From NCBI GenBank assembly GCA_942492635.1, contig CALOFP010000001.1, positions 799,039 through 863,038 of the forward strand: a stretch of 64,000 nucleotides of DNA. Direction: 5' to 3'. Within the stretch, counting starts at the first letter, position 1; every line of letters begins with the position of its first letter. A program made the translations under genes and the position numbers. This document shows positions 2,919 through 59,997 of this stretch, piece by piece. Under the pieces are notes generated by a model that saw nothing but the letters and a program-made list of their open reading frames with translations, was not told where the DNA came from and searched no databases. Source of the stretch: an uncultured bacterium (lineage in GTDB: Bacteria; UBP6; UBA1177; CALOFP01).

Positions 2919-2919
2919 A

Positions 2920-7462: not shown

Positions 7463-7493
7463 AAAAGTTTTCCTTTGATTTTCATAAGAGAAT

Positions 7494-8777
7494 TTAGTAG
7501 TCGACAACAATTGAGAGCATGGAACTATGAGTTGTGTAATCGTAAAAGACCTCACCGATTTTTTGCTGATCTCCATCCAAGAGCACTGTGGAATGATCGG
7601 TATCTCTCATTTCAAATGAATAGTTAAGAGCTAGACCCAACCAGTTGGTTATGTTGTATGCAATGTTTGGTGAGACTTTATAGAGAATATCATCTCTTGT
7701 CTTGCCACTCTGTTCGTCTGTCACATTTTCACCGAAAGCAAGAAATCTGACATTTCCTTTAAGAGAAAGAAGAAGCTTCTTTCCCAAAAGTTTATACCAC
7801 ACACCGGCATAGATCTTATCCTGACGGTAATACTGATAGTCCGAAGACGGAGTGTAGTTTCTCAAATATCCGAGTTTTGCAATCAGCATTTCCGAATGCT
7901 TGTAAACAACTTCTGCGCCTGCGGTTACATCCTGTTTTTCGGTGAAGGAGAAGGTGTTCACATAACCGGTGCTTAATTTGAGCGAAAACTTTGGGGTTAT
8001 CTGACCTATGATACCTCCGAAGATATTGAGAGGAAGGGAGTTCTGACGGTCTCTTTCATCTCCTGAGTTATAATAATCCTGAAAAACAACAGAAGTGTTC
8101 AGAAAAAGGGCTGTTTTCGGGAAAAACTTCCACTTTGCATACAAATTCCCTCGATATGAAAGATAGTTCTGATCACCGTAAATATCCTGCTCATAGTAGT
8201 TTAGAGAGACTCCTGCACTCAACTTAAGAAGAAGAGTTTCAGCAGGAGTAACCATAAAACCGGAAAGCTCAAATGTCTCCATTAAGTTGGCAGTCAGACC
8301 TGTGATGTTCTGACTTTCTGGAGATGAGTTCCTGGTAAATCTGTTTGAGAATTTGAATCGAAAAAAGGACTCCTTATTAAAAAGTCCGTCAACTTTTGAA
8401 TTTATGTGAAGTGTGGAGAGATTTTCTGTCGTATCCTTCTCCTCAAGCCCAGTATAGAGATTGTAGTCCATCATTACGGAAATTCCCAGCGCCTTATCCC
8501 TGTCATCCATCAGAAACTTCAATCCAGGTGAAATATGAAAAATTATATCGGACACGGATTTCTGCTTGATACCGGACCCATCGGTTTCACTTAGAAAATA
8601 GGTCCTATCGGAACTTCTTGCAACATTCGACATGTATTCGGGTGCGAGAGATAGGTAAACATCCAACCTGGAATTATCGGATAACCTGAAACCTTTCTGT
8701 TCTTCACCGTAAACCGCACCGATTGTAACAAAAATAATCAATATAGAAACTAGACACAATACCACACTCTTCATCAT
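7494..8777 (-). CDS. outer-membrane beta-barrel protein, likely partner of the short OPX
   Basis: It has a signal peptide and alternating amphipathic beta-strand-like segments. The C-terminus ends in an aromatic residue (VVDY). It lies directly upstream of the OPX and BY-kinase genes. Confidence 0.55.
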   Translation of the reverse strand: MMKSVVLCLVSILIIFVTIGAVYGEEQKGFRLSDNSRLDVYLSLAPEYMSNVARSSDRTYFLSETDGSGIKQKSVSDIIFHISPGLKFLMDDRDKALGISVMMDYNLYTGLEEKDTTENLSTLHINSKVDGLFNKESFFRFKFSNRFTRNSSPESQNITGLTANLMETFELSGFMVTPAETLLLKLSAGVSLNYYEQDIYGDQNYLSYRGNLYAKWKFFPKTALFLNTSVVFQDYYNSGDERDRQNSLPLNIFGGIIGQITPKFSLKLSTGYVNTFSFTEKQDVTAGAEVVYKHSEMLIAKLGYLRNYTPSSDYQYYRQDKIYAGVWYKLLGKKLLLSLKGNVRFLAFGENVTDEQSGKTRDDILYKVSPNIAYNITNWLGLALNYSFEMRDTDHSTVLLDGDQQKIGEVFYDYTTHSSMLSIVVDY

Positions 8778-8799: not shown

Positions 8800-9507
8800 T
8801 CAGGTTTCTCTACTGACCACAACATCTGGAGGAGTTGTGACTTCGGTTTCTTTCTCCTCATTATCCTCAGATATGCCCCCTTCACTCTCCGGAGTGTCGG
8901 TAGGTCCCCCTATCTGATCCGTACCTCCTGCATCGGCAGTATCATCTACAGCAGTACTTTCCTGCCCCTTCTCTGTAAGAAAATCATCGGAAAAGCCCTG
9001 TCCCATAGCTTCATTGACGTTTCCTTCTTCACCAAAGGTTCCGGTTTCTTCTTTATTTTCAGATAGTTCTACCGTAGTGCGCTCACTTGTTCTTGCGACC
9101 TGCTTCTGACAAGCATAGGCTTCCGTCAAATACTTCTCGGCAGAATCCGAAAGCCCCCTGATAAGAATGAATTGACTTCTGGCGGCATCAACCCTATCAA
9201 TATTCAAAAGATCAATCATCCTGTACCTTGCTGAAGTAACACTTGCAACTATACCCTTGAGACTTACAAGAACATCATCAAGACACACTTTCCACTTTAT
9301 GTCCTTATCCCTGACTGCCTCCCTATTCATCTCCTCAACTCTTTTCTCGATTTTCTGGACGCTCTTCAGGAGTTCAAGAGTCTCCGTCTTCATCTGTGTT
9401 GCGGAGATTTTCTCTGTTCCAGACTCCTCCTCTGCGCTAACCTCTGCAAAAGAGAGGAAGAGAATAGATATCAAAAATAATACGACTTTTGATTTCCCGA
9501 CTCTCAT
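8800..9507 (-). CDS. secreted hypothetical protein with acidic C-terminal tail
   Basis: The ORF has a signal peptide (MRVGKSKVVLFLISILFLSFAEVSA) and no recognised domain. Confidence 0.4.
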   Translation of the reverse strand: MRVGKSKVVLFLISILFLSFAEVSAEEESGTEKISATQMKTETLELLKSVQKIEKRVEEMNREAVRDKDIKWKVCLDDVLVSLKGIVASVTSARYRMIDLLNIDRVDAARSQFILIRGLSDSAEKYLTEAYACQKQVARTSERTTVELSENKEETGTFGEEGNVNEAMGQGFSDDFLTEKGQESTAVDDTADAGGTDQIGGPTDTPESEGGISEDNEEKETEVTTPPDVVVSRET

Positions 9508-9545: not shown

Positions 9546-10928
9546 TCAGTTACTGGGAAAAAAGACAAATGGATACTCGATACTTACCGGACCTTCCTCC
9601 GGTCTCGGGAATCTCCATCGCTTAACAACAGATTTAATACAAGTTGCGACTTTCGGATCCCCTACCGTATCAGCTGTAATTTCTACAAGTTGAACTCTTC
9701 CTCTATCGTTAATCATGAACGTCACAGATATTTTTCCCTTGAGGTTGGGGTTTGCCTTCAGCTGCTTTTCGTAACATCTTCTTATGGCCCTTGTATGCAT
9801 TCTCACGACTTTGTTAACACCTTTTCGATCGATTGTACCTTCAACTTGAGGAACACCGATTTTTGTCTTTGCCACAACTGCCTTCTTCTTGATACCTCCC
9901 TCGATACCGACTTTTGAAGATTTTGCAACTTTAAGGTCGCCTACCTTCTTAGTTTTAACTGCACCGGCATCTCCCTTTCGGCTTCTCTGTCCAGCGCTCG
10001 TAGCGATACCGATCTGTTTCACACCGGATAGTGCCGTATCGATATCCTTATCCTTTCCGCCCTCACCAAGAACGTTCGCTATCACCATACCTTCGCTGCC
10101 TTCTCCGGCAGTTCCGATGAGCTTTAGAAGACCAATTCCGGCAACCTTCTTCTTCATCTGCTCGAGTCTCATGGCCTCTTCCTTTGCTCTGGTTGCCGCA
10201 TCACGAGGCTTTCTTTTTCTGGCGACTTCCTTTCCCGACTCAGGCTTCTTTTCAGCCTCTTTCTTTCTTGCAGCGAGTTTCTTAACTTCACCCTTGACTT
10301 TAGGCGGCTTCTTCTCCTTCTCCTCCACCTTTAGCTCTTCGATTTTCGGAACGATCAATTTAGCAAAACGATTGGATATTTTTTCGATGGGAACGGGTTC
10401 CGGAGCCGGAAGACTCGTAAGCCACGAGAAAAAGATATAACCAAGAACAAAGACAACCGACTGGAGACTTATAAAAGTCCAATCAACCATCTGCGTCCAT
10501 GACCCCTTAATCGATCTAGGCAACTTGAGCTTAGGAGGCCTTGGAGGCGGTGTGATGAACTGAAAAAGTACTATTGCACTTCCTACAGCAATTTTTCCAC
10601 GTGCATCGGCGCTCAAGGGCAGGATAAACGTACGACCCCTCTTGTTGAGGACGCCCTTGTCTATGACTTCCTCGACATCTACAACTTTACCCTTGATGAA
10701 AATTTTACCTGTCATACCTTTCAAAAGTACCAATTCGTATCGTCCGGACTTATAACCGAACAGCGGATATTTATCAGGCAAACTTGACGAAGGCACCACA
10801 AAATGACATTTCGGAGAATCCCCTACATAGATTGTCTCTGGTTTTCTGATGATTTGTTCGTCAAGAATACGACCATTGTAAATAACACCTACTCTCAGTA
10901 CCTTTGTCGCTGGATTGGCTCGTGTCAT
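9546..10928 (-). CDS. TonB-like energy transducer with AgmX/PglI-type C-terminal domain
   Basis: A central TM helix and a Lys/Glu/Pro-rich linker precede a C-terminal TonB_C-like domain (VTFMINDRGRVQLVEI...RWRFP). It follows the exbB-exbD-exbD genes. Confidence 0.6.
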   Translation of the reverse strand: MTRANPATKVLRVGVIYNGRILDEQIIRKPETIYVGDSPKCHFVVPSSSLPDKYPLFGYKSGRYELVLLKGMTGKIFIKGKVVDVEEVIDKGVLNKRGRTFILPLSADARGKIAVGSAIVLFQFITPPPRPPKLKLPRSIKGSWTQMVDWTFISLQSVVFVLGYIFFSWLTSLPAPEPVPIEKISNRFAKLIVPKIEELKVEEKEKKPPKVKGEVKKLAARKKEAEKKPESGKEVARKRKPRDAATRAKEEAMRLEQMKKKVAGIGLLKLIGTAGEGSEGMVIANVLGEGGKDKDIDTALSGVKQIGIATSAGQRSRKGDAGAVKTKKVGDLKVAKSSKVGIEGGIKKKAVVAKTKIGVPQVEGTIDRKGVNKVVRMHTRAIRRCYEKQLKANPNLKGKISVTFMINDRGRVQLVEITADTVGDPKVATCIKSVVKRWRFPRPEEGPVSIEYPFVFFPSN

Positions 10929-10979
10929 TTAAAACCTCTGCTGTAAAAAATACAATACCACTTCCCCAAATAAAAAAAT

Positions 10980-11010
10980 ACGGAGCACTTCACAGTGCTC
11001 CGTACGTCAA
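10980..11010 (-). terminator. intrinsic terminator after exbD (hairpin CGGAGCAC-TGTGAA-GTGCTCCG followed by a T-run on the minus strand)
   Basis: A perfect 8-bp stem with a 6-nt loop is followed by TATTTTTTTATTT when read on the minus strand. Confidence 0.7.
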
Positions 11011-11023
11011 CTCAAATAAACAG

Positions 11024-11620
11024 CTACGATGCCTCATCTCCGGCATAGATTACTGCAAACTTAAATTTTGAAAACTCCGCTTGTCCGGCTGTATACATAA
11101 CCTCCGTCAAAAGTCTGTATGGAGTCTCCTCATCCATAACGATCGTGCACAACCCCTTGAACTCGACCTTAGGATTCATACTGGCAAGACGTCTCTTCTT
11201 TTCTGCCGCATCAAGAAGTACCTTGTTAAGCTGAATCAGAAAATAACTGTCTTCGCCACCCCTCTTCTGTGAAGCATCAACCTTACCGTCTTTCAACTCC
11301 AATCCAGGAATAGCCTTATTGTCGACAATTATCGCTGTTTTTGAAACTGTAACAGAGACTGTTGCCTCAGGCTTCAAAAGTGCATTGGAATTCGGTATCT
11401 GAAGATCGCTACTGGGTTCGATTGTCAGAGGATCCGTAGCGTAACTTTTCAAAAGGAAAACAAGAAGGATGGTAAGAATATCCATGAGGGAGTTGATATT
11501 CAAATCACTAACACCCTCTTCCTCTTTCTTATCCATACGTCCCTTCCGCTTTCTCTTGAGCATCTCCTCTTCGTAGTTCGGAGAAAGATGCTCATACGTT
11601 CTTTTGTCTTCTGCCATCAT
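11024..11620 (-). CDS. exbD: biopolymer transport protein ExbD/TolR
   Basis: It has a single N-terminal TM segment (INSLMDILTILLVFLL) and the ExbD-like periplasmic domain. Confidence 0.8.
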   Translation of the reverse strand: MMAEDKRTYEHLSPNYEEEMLKRKRKGRMDKKEEEGVSDLNINSLMDILTILLVFLLKSYATDPLTIEPSSDLQIPNSNALLKPEATVSVTVSKTAIIVDNKAIPGLELKDGKVDASQKRGGEDSYFLIQLNKVLLDAAEKKRRLASMNPKVEFKGLCTIVMDEETPYRLLTEVMYTAGQAEFSKFKFAVIYAGDEAS

Positions 11621-11632
11621 ACGCTCCTTAGT

Positions 11633-12193
11633 TTAAGCCAAGCCGGCACTCAGGACAACCTCCGGGAAGAGCGGCTGCTTCTTATCGCCGTTCTTGGTCT
11701 CCCTGGCAGCATCCATGACCTGAATGATGTACTTGTACTTTGTGGTAGCTTCAGCCTGGATGATAACCTTCGACTCACCTGGATTCGCATTTTTGATATC
11801 CGAAAGAATCTTCTGCAATCCCGAGTAGTCGTAAACCTTTCCAGGAACATTGTTGCCGGTACTACCCTCCTTAACCTCCTCTTCTCCATCAATCTTCGGC
11901 AGAGTGGGGCCCAGAGGATCATCTTTGTTCTCGATAACCTGATCCCGGGCAAAAACTGTGATACCTCTGTCGGTAAGAGCGATAGTAAGTTTCAACGGCT
12001 TTTCCGAATCTTTCGGAGCAGGTGGAATCGAATCGCTCGGCCCTGCAAGCTGGGGAGTTGAAACATTTATCACTGCAATTTTCACTGCCTCCATTGACGT
12101 CAGAAGGAGCGGAATGAGGATAAGAATAAGGTTCATCGCAGGCTTCAAGTTCAAATCTTGCGACGGTTCAAAACCTTTTCTCTTTCTTGCCAT
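11633..12193 (-). CDS. exbD: biopolymer transport protein ExbD/TolR (second copy)
   Basis: It has an N-terminal TM segment (LNLKPAMNLILILIPLLL) and matches the ExbD family. Confidence 0.8.
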   Translation of the reverse strand: MARKRKGFEPSQDLNLKPAMNLILILIPLLLTSMEAVKIAVINVSTPQLAGPSDSIPPAPKDSEKPLKLTIALTDRGITVFARDQVIENKDDPLGPTLPKIDGEEEVKEGSTGNNVPGKVYDYSGLQKILSDIKNANPGESKVIIQAEATTKYKYIIQVMDAARETKNGDKKQPLFPEVVLSAGLA

Positions 12194-12218
12194 TCTCTAC
12201 CCTCCTAAGTAACTGTGT

Positions 12219-12866
12219 TTATTCCGCACCCTTCTCTGCTCTACTAACAAGAAGGTTAACAAGCTTGACTGAATAGAGATCTATCTCATTAATAATCTTA
12301 GCACAGAATCCCTTAACAATCATGTGAATTACCATTGCGGGAATAGCAACAATAAGTCCGAAACCTGTTGTATTCATCGCGATAGCAATACCGCTTGCGA
12401 GCATTGCGGACTTCTGCTCGGGAGCAGCGTTGGCAACAGCTTCGAAAGCCTGAATAAGACCGAAAATCGTTCCGAGAAGTCCAACGAGTGTAGCCATATT
12501 TCCAACAACGAATATGGTTTCAACAAGTTTTGTGATTTTCGGAGTAACCTCAAGAATCGATTCTTCGATAGCATTCTGAATCTCAAGCTCTCCTCTGTTC
12601 GCTCTGGAAAGACCAGATTTAAGAACCTGCGCAAGAGCCGCATCTCCTGCAGCCGTACAAAGCTTGATGGCCTTGTCAATGTTGTTGGCCATAACAAGCT
12701 TCTGAATCTGCTTCATAAGGTTTGCACCGTTTGTGTTGAACTTGGCGATCAGGAAGAAGAACTTCCAGAAAGCAACACCAAGAACGTAGAGAAAACAGAT
12801 CGCGATGAAATCCATGAAAATGCCGCCATCTCTGTAAAACTGTCCGGCCTTTGCAAAAAATTCCAT
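12219..12866 (-). CDS. exbB: MotA/TolQ/ExbB proton-channel protein
   Basis: It shows a three-TM topology with the conserved C-terminal TM pair (GLLGTIFGLIQAF...TTGFGLIVAIPAM). Confidence 0.85.
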   Translation of the reverse strand: MEFFAKAGQFYRDGGIFMDFIAICFLYVLGVAFWKFFFLIAKFNTNGANLMKQIQKLVMANNIDKAIKLCTAAGDAALAQVLKSGLSRANRGELEIQNAIEESILEVTPKITKLVETIFVVGNMATLVGLLGTIFGLIQAFEAVANAAPEQKSAMLASGIAIAMNTTGFGLIVAIPAMVIHMIVKGFCAKIINEIDLYSVKLVNLLVSRAEKGAE

Positions 12867-12905
12867 GAAACACCTCCATAAAAAAATGAATTCTAAACAG
12901 GAGCC

Positions 12906-13151
12906 TTAAAAAACTCCCTTCTTATAGACACCTTCTTTAATCTTTTTTAAAAAACTGATATCCAGCTTTAAAGTCTGATAGGTGAATCTTGCCCTCGATA
13001 GAAAAAAAATCGCCTCAGGCTTTTGTATCTCACCTTTAATCTTTATCGCTTCAAACTTTATAACCTTTCTTCCCTGCGGAGCACCATACAGATGACCAAT
13101 CGTGAGAAAGAAAAGCATAAATAATATTAAATAACCTTTCATGGCAAACAA
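12906..13151 (-). CDS. small secreted hypothetical protein
   Basis: The ORF has a signal-like N-terminus and sits between exbB and the TPR genes. Confidence 0.3.
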   Translation of the reverse strand: MFAMKGYLILFMLFFLTIGHLYGAPQGRKVIKFEAIKIKGEIQKPEAIFFLSRARFTYQTLKLDISFLKKIKEGVYKKGVF

Positions 13152-13230
13152 ACTTCTATTTGTACAACATTAAAAATAACGATTTCATCGTAGTAAATCA
13201 ACTTTTTTACCTATTTTTTTCCAAAGTAAA

Positions 13231-14700
13231 TCAATTATCATCATCGTTTGAAGTGTTGTCTTTTTCTTCTATTCTTTGAGATGAAGTTCCGGGCAAGCTG
13301 GAATCTTCATCCGTTGACTCCGATGGAACATCAGCTTCTGCATCACTGTCGACCATCTTTTCAGCGTCCCTTCTTTTCAGCTCATCAAATGCCTTTGCCT
13401 CTTCTTCAGCGGCACGCCTTTTTGCTTCCATACGAGCCCTCATCTTGTTAATTCTGACGAGCTTCTTCTTTTCAATACCGGCTTCCTTGATGTATCCCCG
13501 AACCTTCTTAATCTCATCTCTATCTCTTTTAGGGACCAATTTCAAGTACTTTTCAAAGTAGGATATCGACAGGTCAAACCTTTCCGGCTTCTGATCCCCA
13601 TCCACATCAGAATCCAGATAAAGTATTGCCGTATTGTAGTAAACCGACTTCAGCAAATCTATGGGAAGATCCTTTGTGCCTTCAATTTCAGACAGCAACT
13701 TCCTCGCCTCCTTGAATTTTGCAAGCCCTTTCATGGCAATAGCGAGGTTAATCTTTGCGGCATGAAAATCGGGAGCAATACCCAGAGAAAATTCCAGCTC
13801 GTTCTTTGCTATCTCAAAAGATTCAATCTCCATGGCGAGAACGGCCAGCATATTACTTACCTCCGGCAGTTCGGGATTCAATCTTTTGGCCTTCTGGAAA
13901 TGATCAGTCGCCGCCGCAGTCTTTCCCTCCCTGTAGGAAAGAAACCCCATCATACGTTGAAGCCTGAAGTTGTTTTCATCAATCTTTTCTGCAGTAGAGA
14001 AAATCATTCCGGCCAGTTCGAACATCTCCTTATGATAGTAGGCTGTTCCCATGTTTACCATTGCATCAACATTCTGCTCATCGTTTTTCAATGCACTTTT
14101 GGCAAAAAGAATTGCTTCATCATAATTTTTTAATTTCAAACTGAGCCATGAAAAGAAATTGGACTTCACGACCTCATCTGGATAGTCCTTCATCAGGGTA
14201 ACATAAAAATCCTTCTTGAATTTCTTTTCTTTCAGATCGATAGCCGCAAAATTGTAGAGGGGTTCAACAAAACTCTTCTCCAGCTCGAAACTTTTCAGAT
14301 ACCACCTCTTACTTTCAGAAATTTTACCTTCACGCTGGTAGCAAAGAGCAACATTGTAGGCGATCCTTGCATTTAGATCATCTTTTTCAAAAGCCTTTTC
14401 CCAGGAGTCAATTGCCTTTCCGCACCCCTCAGAGAAGTAGGATTCCACTCCGACAACAAAACCTCTTCTGGCGGGCCCGACATATTTCAAACCATCATAG
14501 GATTTCCGGACAACCTCTCCAGACTTCTCTTCAACGTCCTTTCCTTTCTCGGCAGAAACTGGCTGATCGACATCACTTTCCTCTTGAACCACCTCATCAA
14601 ACCCACCTTCTTCAACTCGCGTTTTTCTAAGGGAACTCTTCGCAGGTCCGCAAGAAAGAGCAAAAAATATCACCATAAAGAGACTAAATAAACGCATCAT
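13231..14700 (-). CDS. TPR-repeat protein
   Basis: It has a signal peptide and multiple TPR-like helical repeats. It overlaps the upstream gene by 4 nt, which suggests translational coupling. Confidence 0.7.
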   Translation of the reverse strand: MMRLFSLFMVIFFALSCGPAKSSLRKTRVEEGGFDEVVQEESDVDQPVSAEKGKDVEEKSGEVVRKSYDGLKYVGPARRGFVVGVESYFSEGCGKAIDSWEKAFEKDDLNARIAYNVALCYQREGKISESKRWYLKSFELEKSFVEPLYNFAAIDLKEKKFKKDFYVTLMKDYPDEVVKSNFFSWLSLKLKNYDEAILFAKSALKNDEQNVDAMVNMGTAYYHKEMFELAGMIFSTAEKIDENNFRLQRMMGFLSYREGKTAAATDHFQKAKRLNPELPEVSNMLAVLAMEIESFEIAKNELEFSLGIAPDFHAAKINLAIAMKGLAKFKEARKLLSEIEGTKDLPIDLLKSVYYNTAILYLDSDVDGDQKPERFDLSISYFEKYLKLVPKRDRDEIKKVRGYIKEAGIEKKKLVRINKMRARMEAKRRAAEEEAKAFDELKRRDAEKMVDSDAEADVPSESTDEDSSLPGTSSQRIEEKDNTSNDDDN

Positions 14701-17700
14701 TTATCATTCTCGCTTTTTTCTTCAAGCGGCGCCTTCTGCTCCTGTGGCTCAGGCTCCTGTTTCTTCTTATTCTCTTCAATTTTCTTAATTCCCGATTTTG
14801 TATATGCCTTTTTCTCACTCTTATCGAGGGATAACAGCACAGGATAACCGGTTTCCCTTGCTACATCCAAAGCAAACAGCGATTTTTTACCGACTTTATA
14901 TTCGTCAGGTCTGAGTGTAGACAACTTTTCAATTATCAGCTGTGTCCATTTGTTAAAAATCTTCTGCTCCCTGGCGTTTTCAAGAGTCCTGACATACATG
15001 TTTACAGCCTTCTCCTCAAGAGGAGCAACCTGCTCCTGAATCATCTGCTCATAAATCACAGCCTCTTCTTCGCTCAACTCGGGAGGAATCGGAGCGTTGT
15101 AGAGTTTATCAGCGAACAACTGAACCAGACTAGCCCGTCGATAGAGAGAAGCAAAGGACCATTCAGCCACCTTGAACTGGAGAACCTCCTTGTACTTTTC
15201 ATCAAGACTCTTCATCGCCTCACTGATCGATTTCAAGGATTCTCCAAGCTTTTTCACATCTTTTCCAGCGATCTTCATCTTCTCGTAATCAGTATAGTCA
15301 TCCTCCAGCAGTTTGAACTTTGCCTCGGCAGCATAGAGCAGGCCTTCACCTTCAGCAATTTTCTTTTCAGTAAAATAGTCTATAGTTGCCCTGTAGTTTT
15401 TCATTGCCACGTTCCATCTGTTCAACTCCTTCTCATTCAACTGCGCAATTCTGTTGTAAGAACGCATCACGAGGTGGAACGTATCGGGATCGTTCCTGAA
15501 GGCTTTTATAAAGCGGAGATATCTCTTAATGGCTCCCTGCCAGTCCTTCGCCTTTTCGTACATGAGAGCGGAACGATAAAGAGCTTCCTTACCGTCAGAC
15601 TCCTCACTCTTCTCCTTGTAGTACATGTAGTAGTTGACAGATGCGGGCCGGTAACGCTTCAAGTTCTCCTTTATGAATCCGGCATTGTAAATAGCTGCAG
15701 CCCGGTTTTTGTCTGCAGGGTACTTTTTGTAAAGTCTTTCGTAGGCATCAACGGCTTTATCGAAATCATAGCTGTTTTCGGCATTGTAGGCTACAAGGTA
15801 GAGAGACTGGGGTGCAAGGTCAGAGTAGGGATACTCTTTGAAGACCCTTTCGTGCAGCTTAAGCGCCGAGTCGAAGAGAAGTCCCTTCTGATATGCAACA
15901 GCTGCATTGTAGAGAGCAATATCCGCCTTCTCCGTGTAGGGATTCTCTTCAACAACCCGGAGAAACTCCTCGGCAGCCTCCTTATACTTGTTTTCCGACT
16001 GGAGCTGCTCCGCATAGTTGAAAAGGGCGCCCATACGATAGGTCTTGAATTCGGAAACAGCCTTCGCAGACTCCTCCTTCTTCAGCGACAACCTGTCGGT
16101 CAACAATTTCGACCACTTAGCAACATTTACCCAATCCTTCTTCTCGTTGTATGCGGCAATGATGTCCCTTGCGGAATTAAATGCCAGTTCGGATGTCGGA
16201 AACTCGTTTATTATCTGGAGATAACGTCTCTCCGCCTCTTCAAACTTTCCGTGATTGTAGAATATTCTTGCAACCTGGTAGGAGAAGGCTGCACGCTCGG
16301 GATCGTCCTTTGATATCTTGAGAAAGACATCCGTTGATTCGATCAACTTTTCTTCAAGCTTGGAAAAAGGTTTTCCCGACAACTCCTGAGCAGACATGGT
16401 ACTTTCGGATGAACGGGTCCAGAGGGTGTAGTAGGACCTGAAAGTTGCATCCGCAGCATCCTTTCTGAATTTGTCCTGATTCTTATCATCCCTGATCCTC
16501 TCGAAAACAACAACGGCCTTTTCAATATCTCCTGATTCGTATAGTGAATCGGCAAGATACCAACTTATATCGTAACTTTCTGAAGTGTACGGATATTTAT
16601 CCAGATACTCCATGTAGGAAAGAGCGGCGAGGCGATATTCGTCCTTGGCCTTTTCGAGCTCGCTCTTCTCCTTCTCTCTCTCCGCTCTCCTGTGGTGGAA
16701 GCTTGCAGCTGCAAGAAGGGCGTCTTTCGTCTGCTCCGATGCGAATTTGAGGGCCGATACATTATTTCTGTTCGCCTGAGCCCATTCGCTTTCAGATGAG
16801 TACTTTCTCGAAAAAACTTCCATCTCCATAAATGCCTTATCAAGTTCACGAGCCTTGTTAAGGGACTGTATTAAACTAAAATGAATTTTCGGTGAATTCT
16901 CATAGAGAGGATGCCTGTCCAGAATAAAGCGGTATGCCTTTTCAGCCTGTGCGTAGCTGCTGTTCTCCTGGTAGAACTTTCCAAGCTTCTCAAAAACATC
17001 GATTTCAAAGGTTGCGCCCTCTATGGAGTTGAAGTAGTCTATGGCCTTTTCAACGCTTCCCCACTCCTCGTCGGAAAATGAGATGGCGATATACTGAACA
17101 GCTTCCTTTCTAAGATCCTGTCCTCTCTCCTCTCCCTTTGCCTTCATCCTGTCGGCGAACTGAATGAGGTCGGTAAAAATTGACACGGCATCTTCAAACT
17201 TGTTCTGTCTGTAGTAGGTCCAGGCAAGCTTGTACATCACCTTATCGTAAAAGTTACTCTCCCTGTACTTGATACCCTTGTTGAAGTATGCGAGAGCCCT
17301 GTCCAGGTTGTTGGCATTGAAGTAGTACTCTCCTATCCTGTAGTAAACCTCTATAAGGAATTTTTCATCTATACTGTTCAGGATATCCTCATTTTCCACA
17401 ATCGTTGTCCAGATACCGACGGCCCTGTCCTGCTGATTGGATGCATCAAGACAAAATCCCAGCATGTAGTAGGCTCCGCCCACATATCTGAAGGAGGGAA
17501 AACGATCGACAATTCCCTGATAGAGCGCTATGGAGTCAGCGTAGTTTACGGCGGGAATTTCGGGCTCCTTCTTTATCTGTCCACTTTCAAACAGTTCAAT
17601 GCGTTTTTCGTACTCCGCCATTCTGCTCTCATGCCTCAGAATAGAGCGCTCGTAATAAAGCTCAGCAAGCCTATACATCGCGCTGGGAGTAAATGTCTCG

Positions 17701-18038
17701 GAATTAGGATACTTTTTTATAAATCCTTCGAAGAGGACAATGGCATCGTTGCGATTTGAACTCTCGTTTTCAAGTTCTGTCCTGATTACATTTGCATATT
17801 TCAACTCAATTAAGCGCTTTTTCTCCTCAACGTTACGCTTCATGAGAGCCTGTATCTCTTCCCGGTACTTTTTTACAAGCATCTCATAGCGAAGTGTCTG
17901 TCGTTCCAAATAGCCTTTGTCAAACTCTTCGGAATCAACCAAAACCGAATCCTCACCTATCGGCTCTGTATCGGCTTCAGCAGACAGCATCATTGGAATA
18001 AAGCAGATAATAGACATTAGGGACCAGAAACATTTCAT
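14697..18038 (-). CDS. large TPR-repeat protein (1113 aa)
   Basis: It has an N-terminal signal or TM segment and dozens of TPR-like repeats (W/Y-rich AxxY patterns). It ends in a Lys/Glu-rich tail. Confidence 0.7.
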   Translation of the reverse strand: MKCFWSLMSIICFIPMMLSAEADTEPIGEDSVLVDSEEFDKGYLERQTLRYEMLVKKYREEIQALMKRNVEEKKRLIELKYANVIRTELENESSNRNDAIVLFEGFIKKYPNSETFTPSAMYRLAELYYERSILRHESRMAEYEKRIELFESGQIKKEPEIPAVNYADSIALYQGIVDRFPSFRYVGGAYYMLGFCLDASNQQDRAVGIWTTIVENEDILNSIDEKFLIEVYYRIGEYYFNANNLDRALAYFNKGIKYRESNFYDKVMYKLAWTYYRQNKFEDAVSIFTDLIQFADRMKAKGEERGQDLRKEAVQYIAISFSDEEWGSVEKAIDYFNSIEGATFEIDVFEKLGKFYQENSSYAQAEKAYRFILDRHPLYENSPKIHFSLIQSLNKARELDKAFMEMEVFSRKYSSESEWAQANRNNVSALKFASEQTKDALLAAASFHHRRAEREKEKSELEKAKDEYRLAALSYMEYLDKYPYTSESYDISWYLADSLYESGDIEKAVVVFERIRDDKNQDKFRKDAADATFRSYYTLWTRSSESTMSAQELSGKPFSKLEEKLIESTDVFLKISKDDPERAAFSYQVARIFYNHGKFEEAERRYLQIINEFPTSELAFNSARDIIAAYNEKKDWVNVAKWSKLLTDRLSLKKEESAKAVSEFKTYRMGALFNYAEQLQSENKYKEAAEEFLRVVEENPYTEKADIALYNAAVAYQKGLLFDSALKLHERVFKEYPYSDLAPQSLYLVAYNAENSYDFDKAVDAYERLYKKYPADKNRAAAIYNAGFIKENLKRYRPASVNYYMYYKEKSEESDGKEALYRSALMYEKAKDWQGAIKRYLRFIKAFRNDPDTFHLVMRSYNRIAQLNEKELNRWNVAMKNYRATIDYFTEKKIAEGEGLLYAAEAKFKLLEDDYTDYEKMKIAGKDVKKLGESLKSISEAMKSLDEKYKEVLQFKVAEWSFASLYRRASLVQLFADKLYNAPIPPELSEEEAVIYEQMIQEQVAPLEEKAVNMYVRTLENAREQKIFNKWTQLIIEKLSTLRPDEYKVGKKSLFALDVARETGYPVLLSLDKSEKKAYTKSGIKKIEENKKKQEPEPQEQKAPLEEKSENDK

Positions 18039-20326
18039 TCGATACTCTCCAGGTTCCGGTAAAGGGATTGAATCTCTTTCGCCATTTCACTGCGATACTT
18101 CCTGAGTTTTTTGGAAGCGGCCTCCTTTTTCTCCCAAGCCACATCTATGATCCCGAGATCAGCCTGGAGCACAACATCGGTAAACCGTTTTTTCACAGCT
18201 GCAACGTTGGACACCATGGCAAGGGAAGTAAGTTCATTAACCTCCCTTTTCAACACAAGTATCTGACTCTTATACTCATTAATCCGGATAACTTCCTGTT
18301 CGTAGGAGATCCTGACATCTCTCACAAGCTCCTTAACGATATCGTTCAACTTAAACTGAAAACGGGATATCCGACCATCCAACTCTTCTATTTTTCCAGT
18401 AGTTCTTTCAATATCGAAGATCAACTCAACATTTCTCTCCCCAGATCCACCAAGGATGGAGGAGAGCTGTTCGATGACGCTCTTGTAGCGATTGCGCACC
18501 AGTATCATTCGAGTAACCATCTCTCCGCCGAGAAGCAGCCTGTTCTTCTCGTTTTCGATTTCAGATTTGTACTGCCTCATCGTGTTGAGCATGGCTTCCA
18601 GAGATTTTTTTTCCGTCTCGATCTCAGCTATAAGCGACCTGTTGGATTCGCCCTCCCTTTTCTTTTCCTTAACGTAGTAAGCATTTATAGCCTGAATTTG
18701 AGCAGATGCATTGGAAATTTCAAGAGAAAGCCTATGAAGCTCCCCTTCGATTTTCACTATTCTTTCCGCATACCTGGCTGTCTGCTCCTTAAATTCGCCC
18801 CCCGTCAACGGCATGGTATCAATCTCCTTCTCAAGCTTGCTCTTTTCCCTCTCAAGATTGAGATACCGTTGCTTCTCTTTTTCACTCAAGCCTGACCAAC
18901 CCAGATCTTTTCTCATTTTCAACAGACGATTTCTGTGGTTTGCAAGCCTGTTCTGAAGAGCCACAGAAAGTTCTGTTCCCTCCTTCAGAGGAGGAAAAAC
19001 CGCGGCGGCATTCCTGCTTAAGATAACCGATGAAAGCTTGCTCTCGATCTGGCGAATTGTACCGAGCTCCTTTTCCATCTTTCCCACCTCCTTCTGAAGA
19101 AGCAGGGCGTGATCAAAATTACGATTCTTTTTAAGAAGTGATTTCACGACGGGTGAAAAAAGAGAAAAGGATTTATCATCAACCATTGTTTTGAGGAAAC
19201 TGCCTGACTTTCTTCTATCGGAGAGATTTGATATCTGCTCCATGACTTCACCGTACTTTTTTACCGTACCGTCAAAGGCAACCATGGCCTCACCGTACCG
19301 TTTCATTTTGATCAGAAGATTTCCCTCCAGAAGATCTACTCTCGGGGCAAAGGTGGAGTCGGGTGCAATAAGCTTCAAAAGCCTTAAAGTATCAAGAGCC
19401 TTCCCATCCTCGCCCCTCTTTATGTAGGTCCAGCACAATTCGAAGTAACCCTCCAGAAAATAGTCCGATTTTCTACTGAGACGCAGGTAGTAGTCTGTTG
19501 CCTGAATAAAGTCATTTCTCTCAAAGTAGATTCTGGCCAACGCAAGCCTTGAAAGGTCCCGTATCTTACTGAACTGAAAATAGTCCGGTTTTTCCGGGGT
19601 TGAAATTATCTTTTTCAGGAGATTCTCAGCACCGTCAAAATCTCCCCCCTCAATCCTGATAACACTCATGAAGTAGAGACTCTGAAGATAGTAACGGCTC
19701 TTTTCGCCAAGGGTTTGAAAAATGTCGTAGGCCTCATCCATTTGCCTGTCGAAAAAAAGCGCCTTCCCGAGATAGTAGATCAGCTCTTTGTCATTGGAAA
19801 TATCGTATCCTATGCCTATAAATTCAGCGTAGTAATTCTTCGCTCTGGAATACTCTCCCAGATGGTAGGCCGATGCGATAAGTCTCTTGAGAGAGTCGAC
19901 CTGGAATCGTGTGTTCGGACGTGCGGCCAGGAGCATCTCATAGTATCTCGAAGCCGAAATGTAGTTGCGCCCCTGATAGAGAGACTCGGCAAGCATGAAG
20001 AGTGCCTCTTCCCATACAAAATCCCTCTCTGAACGATTTGCGAATATGGAGTAGTAGATGCCACCGGCAACAGAATAGTCCCTCTTGTCAAAAAAGTATC
20101 GACCCTTCTTCAATCTCTGGGAATAGGACTCTCTGTCTCTCTTCTTCTTGACTACAAGAGGAGATAGAAATCTTTTCTCGGCAGAAATAAATATCGCCTC
20201 CACCTCTTCGACATCCCTTTCGACCGATTTCACGGAAGCGAACTCCCCATTCCCGGATTGAGCACAAACCCCGGATGCGATCAGAATGGAGAAAGAAAGC
20301 AGGAGCCACTTAGTTGTTGGAGACAT
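18035..20326 (-). CDS. TPR plus coiled-coil protein (763 aa)
   Basis: It has a signal peptide, N-terminal TPR repeats and a C-terminal half with extended coiled-coil heptads. There is a 4-nt overlap with the downstream gene. Confidence 0.65.
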   Translation of the reverse strand: MSPTTKWLLLSFSILIASGVCAQSGNGEFASVKSVERDVEEVEAIFISAEKRFLSPLVVKKKRDRESYSQRLKKGRYFFDKRDYSVAGGIYYSIFANRSERDFVWEEALFMLAESLYQGRNYISASRYYEMLLAARPNTRFQVDSLKRLIASAYHLGEYSRAKNYYAEFIGIGYDISNDKELIYYLGKALFFDRQMDEAYDIFQTLGEKSRYYLQSLYFMSVIRIEGGDFDGAENLLKKIISTPEKPDYFQFSKIRDLSRLALARIYFERNDFIQATDYYLRLSRKSDYFLEGYFELCWTYIKRGEDGKALDTLRLLKLIAPDSTFAPRVDLLEGNLLIKMKRYGEAMVAFDGTVKKYGEVMEQISNLSDRRKSGSFLKTMVDDKSFSLFSPVVKSLLKKNRNFDHALLLQKEVGKMEKELGTIRQIESKLSSVILSRNAAAVFPPLKEGTELSVALQNRLANHRNRLLKMRKDLGWSGLSEKEKQRYLNLEREKSKLEKEIDTMPLTGGEFKEQTARYAERIVKIEGELHRLSLEISNASAQIQAINAYYVKEKKREGESNRSLIAEIETEKKSLEAMLNTMRQYKSEIENEKNRLLLGGEMVTRMILVRNRYKSVIEQLSSILGGSGERNVELIFDIERTTGKIEELDGRISRFQFKLNDIVKELVRDVRISYEQEVIRINEYKSQILVLKREVNELTSLAMVSNVAAVKKRFTDVVLQADLGIIDVAWEKKEAASKKLRKYRSEMAKEIQSLYRNLESIE

Positions 20327-21059
20327 CTTCCTCCCCGCGGTTCTTGTTTACACCAGCTTCGCCCTGCCCTTCGTAGGCTTTTTCCTTGAGATCAAATTCA
20401 ACATGAAGTCGATTTTCAAGTTTCTCCGCGCCTCCCTTGTCCTTGGAAACAGAAGAGAGCTCGACGATCCTGCCCTCCTCTACATTGAAGGAGTAGCCCG
20501 TCTTAACTTTGAAGGTATATCCTTCCATATAGGAGAATATTCCGAAACCTTTTCCTCGATATATGAGATAGGCTGATACATGGTGTGGCCCTGGAACAAT
20601 CGAGCCGTCGAATACCACAATATCCTTTTTGCTGAGATCACGTGGACTGTCGATTTTCTTGAATATCGGAGCTTCATCAAGGTAGTATATGGCTGATACA
20701 AGTTCGAATGCTCCACCGACCCTGTTCTTGTGCACAACGGTAGCCCTTGCTCCCGTAATCGCACCCTGAAGAACCGTCTCCTGAAGAATCGAAAGTCTCT
20801 GTTTGGCCCTAAATATCTTATCTTTGAGAGAATTTATCTTCTCCTCAAGAGTTCGCAACTTAATATCGTACTCCCCACTCTGTTCGGAAGATTTTTCCTC
20901 TTTTTCAACCGATTGAGTGCTCTTTTCAACCTGCGTCTCTTTCTTTTTCTCCTGCTCAGGTCTTCCCTCGGAAGAACTTTCTTGTGCGTGGATTGTAAAA
21001 ACAATAGAGAAGATTAAAAAGAGTGAAAGGAAATTTCGCAAAAACATAATGCGCTCCAT
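20310..21059 (-). CDS. secreted coiled-coil hypothetical protein
   Basis: It has a signal peptide and a Glu/Lys-rich coiled-coil region. It is the first gene of the TPR operon. Confidence 0.5.
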   Translation of the reverse strand: MERIMFLRNFLSLFLIFSIVFTIHAQESSSEGRPEQEKKKETQVEKSTQSVEKEEKSSEQSGEYDIKLRTLEEKINSLKDKIFRAKQRLSILQETVLQGAITGARATVVHKNRVGGAFELVSAIYYLDEAPIFKKIDSPRDLSKKDIVVFDGSIVPGPHHVSAYLIYRGKGFGIFSYMEGYTFKVKTGYSFNVEEGRIVELSSVSKDKGGAEKLENRLHVEFDLKEKAYEGQGEAGVNKNRGEEDVSNN

Positions 21060-21109: not shown

Positions 21110-21925
21110 TCAAATCCGCTCTATAGTGAGCATCTCCTGTTTTAATATTAGTTCCCCGACACTTTTGAATGTGTCAACGGCATCGGTAACGTAGAATGTC
21201 TCTTTTCCCGGCTCCGCGGAAGGCCCTTTCCACAACTCTCTATCGATAAGGAGCCTCTTCAATTCACGGGCTGTGAAGTATCCGGAATCCATGATGTTCA
21301 CATTTTCCCCCATGAAGTATCCTATGGGACGTCTAAGCAACGGGTAGTGGGTACATCCCAGTATGAGAGTATCTATCCCGGCCTCTTTCATCGGCTTCAG
21401 ATAGTGTTCGATCACCATCATAGTCATTGGGGTATCCAGCCAGCCCTCTTCCACAAGCGGAACAAAAAGAGGGCACGCCCTGGCGAAAACATCGACATTC
21501 AGACGATTTCTGATTCGCTCCTGATAGACGTTGCTTTTTATGGTGGCCCTGGTACCGATTACTCCAACTCTCTTCACATGATCACATGAAATGAGACCAT
21601 TCACCACAGGCTCTATGACCCCCACTATAGGAATATGGGGAAATTGATCCTGAAGTGACTTCAATGCAACGGAAGAAGCTGTGTTACAGGCGACCACTAC
21701 GGCCTTCACACCTTTCTCCTCAAGAAAATGAACGTTATCCTCGGAATAGCGCTTTATGACACCTTCCGATTTCCCACCATAAGGGACCCTTGCCGTATCT
21801 CCCAGGTAAACAATATCTTCGTTCGGCAGCACCTTGCGAAGCTCCCTGAAAACCGTAAGGCCTCCCAATCCGGAGTCAAAGACACCTATCGGGGAATCAA
21901 TGCCTTTCATCATCACCTTCACCAT
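21110..21925 (-). CDS. murI: glutamate racemase
   Basis: It has the MurI catalytic motifs (VFDSGLGGLTV and LGCTHYPLL). Confidence 0.9.
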   Translation of the reverse strand: MVKVMMKGIDSPIGVFDSGLGGLTVFRELRKVLPNEDIVYLGDTARVPYGGKSEGVIKRYSEDNVHFLEEKGVKAVVVACNTASSVALKSLQDQFPHIPIVGVIEPVVNGLISCDHVKRVGVIGTRATIKSNVYQERIRNRLNVDVFARACPLFVPLVEEGWLDTPMTMMVIEHYLKPMKEAGIDTLILGCTHYPLLRRPIGYFMGENVNIMDSGYFTARELKRLLIDRELWKGPSAEPGKETFYVTDAVDTFKSVGELILKQEMLTIERI

Positions 21926-23717
21926 CCATCTTTAAAATCTCTGTCTTTCCCACGTAGTATTCGGAATCCTCAGCTCGCAATTTTGCAACTTTTTTAGTCA
22001 GCGACACAGCCTTATCCAGTTCGACGCCGAGTCTCTCTATGTACTCGCTTAGATCCGAATCCGCAACAACTTTCTCTTTCAGTATATCCAGATACATCTG
22101 CATAACAGAGAAATTCTGATTAAAGTTGTGAGATATGGTACCCGCCAGCTTTTGGAAAAGCTGTGATCCACCCTCTCCCACCGCCCTGTTCTCAGAACCG
22201 GACTCAATACAATTTTCGCATTCAGGTACAAATTTCAGAAAGTAGAGCTCTGCTTCCCTTGAATATGAAAACAGCGCCCGATACCCTTTCGGCTTTTCCC
22301 CATATGCATCAACGACTCCGACATCAATCGGAATTCTTACTGTTCCAGAATGCCCCTTGTCCCGTTTCAGAAACGAAAAAAGTTGCTTCATGGCATCATC
22401 TTTTTCAGTGAAAGAGAGGATAGAGAGTTCATCTTCTGAGGAGGAGACAACCTTAAGAAGTGCTCTTGCCTCTCGGTTCATGAACCTTATCGCACCCATG
22501 ATATCGAAGGCCAGAAAGGGCGGTACCGTATCAAGAGCCACCCTTAGCCTTTTCAAATCTCTTTCATACCGTCCCGCAGAGCTCTTTTTCTTTTCCTCAA
22601 CCACAAAACCCCATTTTTCTTCCGCAATTTGGAACCTTTTCCACACCAAATCCTTTCTGGAGAGCGTATAAAAATGGTAGTAGGGACGCTCCTGATGCAC
22701 CTTACCCAACTCTATTTCGAATATACTTTGGAGATTTTTATGAAGAATTGCCTTACGCTCTATCTTCAAGATATCCTCCAAGGCCCCGTTGAGAAAAAGT
22801 ATCTTTCCGGATCGATCAGATATCACAATTCCTCCGGGAAGCTGTTCCAAAACAGCCCAGCAACCCTCTTCTGGATGCAGATTTGTGAGGAAGGGGCATC
22901 CGCCCACATTGGCACTACCCTTTTCAAAGAGAAAAAACTTTGAAAACAATACTGAAAAAATTGTCTGGGCCAACTTGCCTCCCTCCGAGAGAGGAGGCTC
23001 TCCGTCAGATCTCACAAGCAGAGCCGCCACAACGTCTCCATACCTGTTCTGCAGAGGAATGGCGGAACGAAAGGAGCTTCCGCTCTCCTCGGAAAGCGTC
23101 GCCCCCCTCGATTTCAGCTCATCAGAGGTGAAACAGAGAGATTTCCTGAAGTTTATCGCCTCTCTCAATTCGGGATAGGAATCTATATGGAGCACATAGT
23201 TCCTGAAGTAGGAGTTGTCAGAAGAAGCTAATATCACGCCGAATTTACCGACAGGAAAAAGAACGACAAGAGTGGTTTTGGATGCATCCAAGGCTCTGTT
23301 CATCAAGACAAGGAATTCAAGAAAAGAGTCATAACTGCACCTTGAAAAAATTGGCAGGGTAATCAGATTCCTGATATCCGCTTCTGCCGAAAACAGCAGG
23401 TTCCCCACCGCCTTCTCCGAAAGGAGCGAGATCTGATAATCGATGTCCACACCAGCCCAGATCAGGCCGTATCCCGATTCGGCAACAATCTCAGGATCAA
23501 TATCTCGATCGGCAAAAATGTAACATGTATTCTCACTTGGAAGGGCAGGAACAAATTCCGTTGCCTCTCTGACTGCATTGCCAAGAAAAAAAATCGTGGC
23601 TCCACTCTCAGGAACAATGCGTTGCGCATCGAAAAGCTTGTTATTTCCGGACTCTACCCAAACAGAAAGCTCCCGCAGAAGTATACCGTCATTGCCTATA
23701 TAATAGTAATTCATCAA
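21897..23717 (-). CDS. cytoplasmic sensory/signalling protein, possibly PAS/GAF-like with a HisKA-like H-box but no ATPase domain
   Basis: It is a 606-aa ORF. Near the C-terminus there is an H-box-like stretch (LAGTISHNFNQNFSVMQMYLD), but no HATPase N/G1/G2 boxes follow it. It lies next to the REC-HD-GYP gene. Confidence 0.45.
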   Translation of the reverse strand: MMNYYYIGNDGILLRELSVWVESGNNKLFDAQRIVPESGATIFFLGNAVREATEFVPALPSENTCYIFADRDIDPEIVAESGYGLIWAGVDIDYQISLLSEKAVGNLLFSAEADIRNLITLPIFSRCSYDSFLEFLVLMNRALDASKTTLVVLFPVGKFGVILASSDNSYFRNYVLHIDSYPELREAINFRKSLCFTSDELKSRGATLSEESGSSFRSAIPLQNRYGDVVAALLVRSDGEPPLSEGGKLAQTIFSVLFSKFFLFEKGSANVGGCPFLTNLHPEEGCWAVLEQLPGGIVISDRSGKILFLNGALEDILKIERKAILHKNLQSIFEIELGKVHQERPYYHFYTLSRKDLVWKRFQIAEEKWGFVVEEKKKSSAGRYERDLKRLRVALDTVPPFLAFDIMGAIRFMNREARALLKVVSSSEDELSILSFTEKDDAMKQLFSFLKRDKGHSGTVRIPIDVGVVDAYGEKPKGYRALFSYSREAELYFLKFVPECENCIESGSENRAVGEGGSQLFQKLAGTISHNFNQNFSVMQMYLDILKEKVVADSDLSEYIERLGVELDKAVSLTKKVAKLRAEDSEYYVGKTEILKMDGEGDDERH

Positions 23718-23971
23718 ATACCGTAAAAAAAATTACAATACTACGATAGTAAACCTACCATATAAGTTGTGATATTTGAAAATTTTTTTGCTGCTTTTAA
23801 AGCCCGATTCGCTTGAAATCATGATTCAATCTAAAAAAGGGCTGTACTTACAGGATCATGCATAAATCCCCCACCCTAACCCGATGAGAGAAAATCATCT
23901 ACAACAAATCTAAATCACAGATCTTTTCCTGCATCCCTGTTCAGAATCGAACTCATCACGCACAAGAATAT

Positions 23972-40558: not shown

Positions 40559-41042
40559 TCATCTCCCTTCAGTGTTTGCATTACACTTTAATATCATTAG
40601 GAATACGATCCCTTCACTGCATCAAGTCTGCGACCCTGCCACCCATGGAAGATACTAAAAATTTTTAATGAAGAACAGTTTTTACTTATGATTTCGTTAA
40701 AGTTTTTCGCATATCTCGAAAAAGCGGGAGAAACGGATGAAAAAGAGGAATTTGGCCATGAATCCCAGTGATTTCAGGAGAATAATTGTGAAAGACAGGT
40801 ATTGACAAGGTGTCAAAGGGAAAAATATAGGGGGTCGATGGTCTACTCATCGTAGGAGGTTGACGTTTAAGGGAATAACTGTCCCAAGTGCTTCTTATTG
40901 CATAATACTAGATAAAAAGTTCGTATCAAGCCACACTTATCACATTAAAACTTCAAAAATATCTTAAAATTATTTTTCAAATAATTTACTTTATCTTTTT
41001 GCTGTGTATATTTCTTTTCAAGAAATAATAAAATTTAACAAA

Positions 41043-41606: not shown

Positions 41607-41663
41607 AAACTTTTATGAACAATCAACCGTCTTATAGATGAATGAAATTGTTTTGGTGGTGAA

Positions 41664-59995: not shown

Positions 59996-59997
59996 AG

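Follow-up and report, generated by a model that had tools for sequence, protein, structure and literature searches.

A G4-type Glt-like gene cluster linked to polysaccharide exporter genes in an uncultured UBP6 bacterium

The gene cluster at 9546–21059 of the stretch analysed here (hereafter the window: 64,000 nucleotides of contig CALOFP010000001.1, from an uncultured bacterium of the UBP6 lineage) encodes an ExbB/ExbD-type stator, a TonB-like transducer and very large secreted tetratricopeptide repeat (TPR) proteins, and it raises the question of what such an envelope machine acts on. The initial annotation regarded it as an Agl-Glt-like or Tol-like machine driven by the proton-motive force (PMF), a reading that is supported by profile matches to GltG, GltE and GltC and by a gene order and protein sizes matching those of the Myxococcus xanthus paralog cluster G4. 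The conserved unit does not end with this cluster; it extends downstream past the GltG-like gene to about position 4656, through genes of a polysaccharide exporter. Taken together, we propose, with a probability of roughly 60%, that what is encoded here is a trans-envelope machine of the Glt/Nfs 'core' kind, belonging to the G4 paralog type, in which a PMF transducer partners a polysaccharide translocon. We regard the machine as neither a nutrient-uptake Ton system nor, alone, a gliding motor.

A Glt-like core cluster with its own stator

All genes of the cluster lie on the minus strand, and the initially annotated coordinates agree with the open reading frames (ORFs) of the window. In the direction of transcription, with lengths in amino acids (aa), the features are:

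20310–21059, minus strand: 249-aa secreted protein, first gene of the cluster, conserved
18035–20326, minus strand: GltC-like protein, 763 aa, TPR and coiled coil (NF033756)
14697–18038, minus strand: GltD-like periplasmic TPR scaffold, 1113 aa (homology to the GltD-like protein of the Myxococcus-like locus L046)
13231–14700, minus strand: GltE-like TPR protein, 489 aa, probable lipoprotein (NF033758)
12906–13142, minus strand: small secreted protein, 78 aa from its ATG, in the GltF position (hidden Markov model, HMM, from relatives)
12219–12866, minus strand: ExbB/TolQ/AglR-like stator subunit, 215 aa (Pfam MotA_ExbB)
11633–12193, minus strand: ExbD/TolR-like paralog 1, 186 aa (Pfam ExbD)
11024–11620, minus strand: ExbD/TolR-like paralog 2, 198 aa (Pfam ExbD)
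10968–11005, minus strand: terminator-like hairpin and T tract, located after the second exbD and ahead of the gltG-like gene
9546–10928, minus strand: GltG-like transducer, 460 aa (NF033760, NF033768)

It was suggested that aglR/Q/S and gltC/D/E/G, together with an extra gene, form an ancestral 'core complex', which several non-myxobacterial lineages carry as a single locus and whose function was left unexplained (Luciano 2011, PMC3169522). The components of this complex are all found in the window: one TolQ/ExbB-like gene with two distinct TolR/ExbD-like genes, GltC/D/E-like secreted TPR proteins within one locus that is ordered C-D-E-(F)-G, and a GltG-like single-pass protein with an AgmX/PglI C-terminal domain. 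Pfam and NCBIfam matches thereby bear out the initially annotated module of one ExbB, two ExbDs and a TonB-like protein of AgmX/PglI type. The description of the 489-, 1113- and 763-aa proteins as secreted TPR proteins also holds, since these three proteins, as well as the 249-aa one, each carry a hydrophobic signal-like segment at the N-terminus. The consecutive 4-nt ATGA overlaps that had been reported are present at two junctions only, GltC/GltD (18035–18038) and GltD/GltE (14697–14700), and the genes for the 249-aa and 763-aa proteins overlap by 17 nt instead. A tRNA search found no genes, and Rfam gave no match within the cluster.

The 460-aa transducer matched the GltG model NF033760 over positions 206–648 of 650 (E 3.7e-50, 171.2 bits, cut-off 650) and the AgmX/PglI model NF033768 over the full domain (E 1.2e-31, 108.7 bits, cut-off 40); Pfam TonB_C reached 18.6 bits, under its cut-off of 24.6. 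Its architecture comprises a cytoplasmic beta-domain, one transmembrane (TM) helix at about residues 150–172, a Lys/Glu-rich linker and the AgmX/PglI domain, which resembles the C-terminal domain (CTD) of TonB, and two of its cysteines, C385 and C430, are invariant. Because the match to GltG begins only at model position 206, the N-terminal FHA domain of GltG, a predicted binder of the gliding-specific GltI, is missing from this protein.

Among the scaffold proteins, the 763-aa GltC-like protein carries TPRs in its N-terminal part and, towards the C-terminus, a coiled coil spanning some 380 aa. It matched the GltC model NF033756 with partial coverage (E 1.8e-15, 56.7 bits, cut-off 450) and the GltC-like protein of L046 with 23% identity over 698 aa (E 1e-55). 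The 1113-aa GltD-like protein contains five YbgF-like TPR stretches (NCBIfam) and is 33% identical to its L046 counterpart over 1028 aa (E 8e-179). The 489-aa protein matched the GltE model NF033758 over positions 76–407 of 411 (E 1.8e-22, 79.9 bits, cut-off 225), and its N-terminus, ...FFALSC, points to a probable lipoprotein. A Bat-family reading of these TPR proteins was rejected, with a negligible BatC hit on the 489-aa protein (E 0.0097) and no other match. The scores against GltC, GltE and GltG all stay well short of the equivalog cut-offs, and therefore these proteins are relatives of the gliding proteins rather than the gliding proteins themselves.

The stator is made up of one ExbB and two unlike ExbDs, with Pfam matches to MotA_ExbB for the 215-aa protein (E 1.7e-23) and to ExbD for the 186-aa (E 2.6e-10) and 198-aa (E 1.1e-9) paralogs. 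When aligned with E. coli TolQ and ExbB, Thr133 and Thr167 of the ExbB-like protein correspond to the Thr residues conserved in TM2 and TM3, and Ile stands in place of the GIAEAL motif's Glu. The TM Asp conserved in E. coli TolR and ExbD (which we take to be D23 and D25, respectively) is found in only one of the two paralogs: the 198-aa ExbD has Asp47 in this column, invariant among all relatives, and the 186-aa ExbD has Asn21, as do all UBP6-like copies and three of the four in-cluster copies from Myxococcota. Because the two paralogs carry Asn21 and Asp47, both invariant in the UBP6-like copies, the stator plug would, judging by these alignments, carry one protonatable Asp only. One ExbB with two distinct ExbDs is also the arrangement of AglR/AglQ/AglS, in which one ExbB type and two ExbD types were modelled as an AglR5-AglQ-AglS heteromer.

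Three items had been overlooked by the initial annotation, namely the 78-aa ORF, a 235-aa secreted protein further downstream, and the continuation of the unit into barrel, exporter and Wzc genes. The 78-aa ORF is situated between the 489-aa gene and exbB, where both sequence and junction were inspected. With an HMM, counterparts were detected in the equivalent place in over 50 Myxococcota loci and 16 UBP6-like ones (E down to 1e-14), and the L046 counterpart has a weak match to CglF NF033764 (E 8.8e-6). The secreted protein encoded by the first gene, for which we give a length of about 245–249 aa, had been described as a coiled-coil protein. The long helix stands, and the remainder is an 8-strand beta-sandwich in the model (37-sequence alignment, predicted local distance difference test score, pLDDT, 77.8), which consists of a signal peptide, a disordered acidic stretch, helix 58–94 and the beta-sandwich. 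This protein is 40% identical to its L046 counterpart (E 7e-44), and, as for the GltC- and GltD-like proteins, the pairwise alignment with L046 is full-length and collinear.

Exporter genes downstream and the reach of the linkage

Five tightly packed genes follow 3' of the gltG-like gene, with gaps of at most 38 nt or overlaps. The features downstream of the transducer are:

8800–9507, minus strand: conserved secreted protein of about 235 aa with an acidic tail, no family
7494–8774, minus strand: outer-membrane beta-barrel candidate, 426 aa, WzpB-like (homology to the WzpB-position family)
6821–7465, minus strand: class-3 OPX (outer-membrane polysaccharide export) lipoprotein, WzaB-like, 214 aa (Pfam Poly_export and SLBB)
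4656–6821, minus strand: Wzc-type polysaccharide co-polymerase (PCP) of class PCP-2A, 721 aa, with fused BY-kinase and Tyr-rich tail (Wzz, GNVR, AAA_31)
2920–4678, minus strand: RlpA-like (DPBB+SPOR) and SpoIID-like genes (Pfam)

The signature of a composite translocon, a short OPX protein with a lipobox Cys encoded next to a barrel gene, is found here. The 214-aa OPX protein has Poly_export and SLBB domains only, with no Wza_C, and its N-terminus reads ...GFLSC with the lipobox Cys. Among PDB entries, M. xanthus sWzaB (9N9A) is its best match (E 3.4e-35). The conserved C-terminus, ...VPERFF, resembles the Phe203-Phe204 motif by which WzaB binds the WzpB porin. In its short D1-D2 lipoprotein OPX, FF end and adjoining barrel, the locus is therefore like the published class-3 OPX/Wzp/PCP translocons (Saidi 2022; Schwabe 2022; Mellouk 2026), and its Wzc, which scores 181.8 bits against TIGR01007 (cut-off 108), is like WzcB a PCP-2A with a fused kinase. 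The published class-3 OPX models, however, have no motor or TonB-like component.

The 426-aa barrel candidate belongs to a family that aligned over its full length with the Myxococcota WzpB-position family (hhalign, 100% probability, E 5e-47), and WzpB has been assigned as an 18-strand porin (PMC9603273). The protein has a signal peptide and ends in Tyr, and every orthologue likewise carries a signal peptide, with Tyr or Trp as its last residue. A word-indexed homologue search with this candidate returned itself only, a profile of the family (29 orthologues) had no match among PDB sequences, and hhalign found no match to the barrel of E. coli PgaA as a single sequence, a result that is uninformative rather than contrary. 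A single-sequence AlphaFold2 model was unusable (pLDDT 34). The 235-aa protein encoded just upstream has no Pfam or NCBIfam match; an HMM of its UBP6-like copies has weak matches (E 1e-7 to 1e-3) in about 45 Myxococcota loci, always in the same place, directly upstream of the barrel gene.

The intrinsic terminator that the initial annotation had placed between exbD and the TonB-like gene is real in sequence, with a 12-bp stem at 10978–11005 (minus strand) containing six G-C pairs, a loop of 4 and a T-run, TTTTTTTATTT. About 15 relatives have a hairpin in this place too, mostly with a T-run behind it, and the stem sequences are unrelated, so that it looks like a structural element under selection. 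The stator and scaffold genes lie on one side of it and GltG with the exporter genes on the other, an arrangement that may point to fixed expression ratios or to a pair of transcription units. Since the terminator lies upstream of GltG and the genes from GltG to Wzc are separated by gaps of at most 38 nt or overlap, the transducer falls on the side of the exporter, and co-transcription of GltG with the polysaccharide translocon genes is probable.

The linkage was followed by mapping 21 window proteins onto 80 species-representative loci, where the UBP6-like counts take only loci with enough flank. Relatives of the GltG-like protein are 51–65% identical in uncultured genomes and 32–39% identical in Myxococcota (Myxococcia, Polyangia and Bradymonadia). 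Synteny of the full block over the 80 loci excludes a chance arrangement. Every UBP6-like locus with enough flank contains the block entire: the eight upstream genes are present in 14 of 14, the barrel and OPX genes 3' of GltG in 17 of 17, and Wzc in 14 of 14. In Myxococcota, the barrel is found in 49 of 54 loci, barrel and OPX together in 42 of 54, and Wzc in 9 of 44; the non-motor genes keep an identical order, and ExbB-ExbD-ExbD is within the cluster in only 4 of 44 loci. A metagenome contig with independent gene calls has the identical order.

Distant versions of the cluster were also seen on metagenome contigs (L084, 1180–9859; L082, 742–7961). In one of them, a UDP-sugar dehydrogenase gene lies divergently beside the beta-sandwich, GltC-like and GltD-like genes, and in the other, a TMEM260_N/TPR protein is encoded right 3' of the OPX gene. 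Both fit a polysaccharide context.

The closest described counterpart is one of two M. xanthus paralog clusters, G4 and G5, that were left unexplained, where G4 comprises MXAN_1919 (447 aa), MXAN_1920 (91 aa), MXAN_1921 (490 aa, TPR), MXAN_1922 (1111 aa, TPR, treated as a gltD homologue) and MXAN_1923 (809 aa) (Luciano 2011, PMC3169522). Read in the order C-D-E-small ORF-G, the sizes are 809/1111/490/91/447 aa in G4 vs 763/1113/489/78/460 aa in the window, and the neighbourhoods are alike throughout: beta-sandwich, GltC-, GltD- and GltE-like proteins, small ORF, GltG-like protein, small secreted protein, barrel and class-3 OPX. The MXAN correspondences are deduced from order and size, not from M. 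xanthus sequence; by position, the 249-aa protein corresponds to MXAN_1924 and the 235-aa protein to MXAN_1917. Counting genes in L046 from the OPX gene back to the GltD-like gene gives MXAN_1915 (WzaB), 1916 (WzpB), 1917, 1918 and 1919 through 1922, in agreement with the published tags and sizes. The L046 proteins also score much like those of the window on the GltG, GltE and GltC models (154, 86.4 and 63 bits vs 171, 80 and 57).

The window version differs from these relatives in three respects. Its host belongs to an uncultured non-Myxococcota lineage; its stator and PCP genes are in place, whereas in Myxococcaceae they lie outside the cluster (M2, MXAN_3003–3005; wzcB, MXAN_1025); and it has no cyclic nucleotide monophosphate (cNMP)-binding gene between GltG and the next gene, unlike L046, in which such a protein is inserted there (11408–11845 of that locus). 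The cluster is thus a G4-type Glt-like one in a lineage far from Myxococcota, and is more complete in having its own stator.

Core complexes of Gamma- and Betaproteobacteria, Geobacter and Fibrobacter have likewise been described as single loci with aglR/Q/S-like and gltC/D/E/G-like genes (Luciano 2011; Wartel 2013). The 'additional gene' of those clusters was reported to lack Myxococcales homologues, whereas the extra genes of the window have them. As for the exporter side, mxan_1915 (wzaB) was described as 'orphan-like', 1 Mbp from the synthesis genes for the biosurfactant polysaccharide (BPS) (Islam et al., 2020). Published reports on class-3 OPX proteins make no mention of Glt-like neighbours, Luciano 2011 was the sole match for MXAN_1917–1922 in the open-access literature, and a search there found no paper linking OPX with Ton, Tol or Glt. 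The linkage between a Glt cluster and an exporter hence appears unreported within the open-access literature.

The flanks of the conserved unit contain further genes. RlpA-like (DPBB+SPOR), SpoIID-like and QueA genes (1878–4678, minus strand) follow Wzc in all UBP6-like loci, the RlpA-like and SpoIID-like neighbours being seen in L003–L007 and other UBP6-like loci and not found beside the Myxococcota clusters; whether they are members of the unit is uncertain. On the other side, MurI (21110–21925, minus strand) lies ahead of the cluster in the window. Such neighbours, connected with peptidoglycan remodelling, are missing from the Myxococcota versions. Just upstream of the cluster are also genes for a PAS protein and for a response regulator that has GAF and HD-GYP domains (21897–25459, minus strand), and these two proteins and the cNMP-binding protein of L046 are possible second-messenger controls.

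What the machine may act on

The core complex was earlier proposed to be a basal PMF-driven transport machine (Wartel 2013; Luciano 2011), and a system in which a machine of this family is known to handle polysaccharide is Agl-Nfs, which moves, assembles and anchors the Exo spore-coat glycan exported by a Wza-type system. In this system AglR binds GltG and NfsG, and AglQ D28 and the PMF are required. Agl-Nfs shares with the window the same protein families, the C-D-E-F-G order and a tie to polysaccharide export of Wza/Wzp/Wzc type. It differs in having the outer-membrane proteins NfsA, NfsB and NfsH, in not being located beside exo, and in borrowing the AglRQS stator, and it acts after export. 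In structure models, GltD and GltC are connectors lying under the outer membrane.

Proton flow through the stator (the ExbB/AglR-like subunit and the AglQ/AglS-like ExbD pair) would drive conformational work in GltG, and GltG would relay this, by way of the GltD/C/E scaffold beneath the outer membrane, to the translocon formed by Wzp and Wza or to its polymer. The work might consist in handling or anchoring the polymer after its export, as Agl-Nfs does with the Exo glycan, or the energised transducer might open or gate the porin. We favour the former, post-export handling or anchoring, on the precedent of Agl-Nfs.

More tentatively, and with some inclination to doubt, we suggest that G4-type complexes in general may be the dedicated PMF partners of class-3 OPX/Wzp translocons, that polysaccharide handling may be the ancestral task of the Glt 'core complex', with the gliding and spore-coat machines evolving from it, and that the M. 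xanthus 'orphan' genes wzaB and wzpB may belong to G4. On this suggestion, GltG and the TPR scaffold would open the porin, or pull or lay down the polymer. In simulations of Wzp porins, the surface loops scarcely move without an external stimulus.

Several points weigh against a machine that works on an exported polysaccharide. Gene linkage is synteny, which does not by itself imply function. A polar insertion in MXAN_1922 left gliding and soft-agar spreading as in the wild type (Luciano 2011, PMC3169522), while BPS-minus (wzaB) mutants show altered swarm behaviour; because the MXAN_1922 mutant is wild-type-like and wzaB mutants are altered, G4 may be dispensable for BPS export, or else wzpB/wzaB may be transcribed from a promoter of their own. 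The motor of Agl-Nfs, too, is dispensable for export itself. Among the Myxococcota loci, 12 of 54 have no detectable barrel or OPX gene within 10 kb. The translocon assignment has weak points of its own: the barrel fold of the 426-aa protein is predicted from homology and position, with no confident model and no sequence-level match to solved structures, and in the 9N9A alignment the Arg106-Arg107 pair with which WzaB binds the PCP is Lys-Asn in the 214-aa OPX protein. Finally, no glycosyltransferase, Wzx or Wzy was found among the scanned ORFs of the 64-kb window, several of which have no Pfam match.

Alternative to a partner of the translocon, the cluster might be a stand-alone Tol-Pal-like machine for envelope integrity or division, with the export genes as mere neighbours. 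This is the alternative that survives best, and we consider it unlikely. E. coli Tol-Pal and TonB-ExbBD share with the window the conserved TM Thr residues and TM Asp of the stator as well as a transducer that crosses the membrane once, has a long linker and carries a TonB-CTD-like domain, and the 215-aa ExbB has its top score against TolQ. They differ in that the window has two ExbDs (one without the Asp), no TolB, Pal or TonB-dependent transporter, large TPR scaffolds and a polysaccharide translocon. Specifically, no TolB or Pal/OmpA-like gene is present in the block or the flanks scanned, and the transducer ends in an AgmX/PglI domain instead of TolA domain III. The YbgF/CpoB-like TPR stretches of the 1113-aa protein (TIGR02795, 124.5 bits in total), together with BamD-like matches, would suit a Tol-Pal machine, but the YbgF score sums repeated TPR units and there is no equivalog match. 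The same applies to the occurrence of RlpA-SPOR and SpoIID after the cluster in all UBP6-like loci, with MurI before it in the window: the Myxococcota cluster is without RlpA/SpoIID neighbours, yet keeps barrel and OPX.

A gliding-motility engine, as in M. xanthus Agl-Glt or the Bdellovibrio systems, is still less probable, and we think it improbable in its own right. It would account for the homology to GltC, GltD, GltE, GltG and AglRQS, and polysaccharide 'slime' has been associated with Glt-driven gliding in the literature. However, no Group A parts (GltA/B/H/K, GltI, GltJ) are found among the cluster proteins, the core genes are insufficient for motility and the M. xanthus G4 mutant glides normally (Luciano 2011, PMC3169522), and the 460-aa GltG-like protein is without the FHA domain, with scores under the gliding equivalog cut-offs.

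Import by TonB-ExbB-ExbD through an outer-membrane transporter is very improbable, since the ExbB and ExbD domains and a weak, sub-cut-off TonB_C similarity are all that recommend it besides an adjoining barrel that could in principle import, and this barrel is homologous to WzpB-position export porins and paired with OPX and PCP genes, while no Plug or TonB_dep_Rec domain occurs in the scanned window ORFs or the 80 related loci, in keeping with the initial remark that no TonB-dependent receptor is nearby.

Other features of the window and significance of the linkage

Away from the cluster, the window contains several unrelated features. An Rfam match to group II intron D1-D4 (46116–46346, minus strand, 50.6 bits) lies beside an IS21-like pair, formed by a transposase with rve and Mu C-terminal domains (46847–48400) and IstB (48397–49155). 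A 2178-aa RHS/YD-shell (teneurin-like) protein is encoded at 53459–59995 (minus strand), with a 1112-aa ORF lacking any Pfam match on its upstream side and a 238-aa one just downstream; this region of lower GC content (52750–63951, minus strand) looks like a polymorphic-toxin locus. The segment 28152–35857 (plus strand) encodes a 962-aa Reg_prop/Y_Y_Y/AraC-type regulator, a 1011-aa ORF without Pfam match and a 557-aa collagen-triple-helix-repeat protein, and its AT skew is strongly positive. At 41004–45739 (plus strand), an extracytoplasmic function (ECF) sigma factor gene precedes four ORFs without Pfam match in a stretch of about 38% GC, which could be an island.

As to the biology of these machines, the functions of the Glt 'core complex' and of M. 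xanthus G4 have been open since 2011, and current models of class-3 OPX secretion have no energy-coupling element at the outer membrane. Linkage across two very distant lineages joins the two problems, in a form that is testable in M. xanthus. Of the forms encountered here, the window version is the most complete, with a single block that contains stator, transducer, scaffolds, porin, OPX and PCP. It is well suited as a template for predicting the structure of the entire assembly, and its linkage to outer-membrane polysaccharide export genes suggests what the machine acts on.

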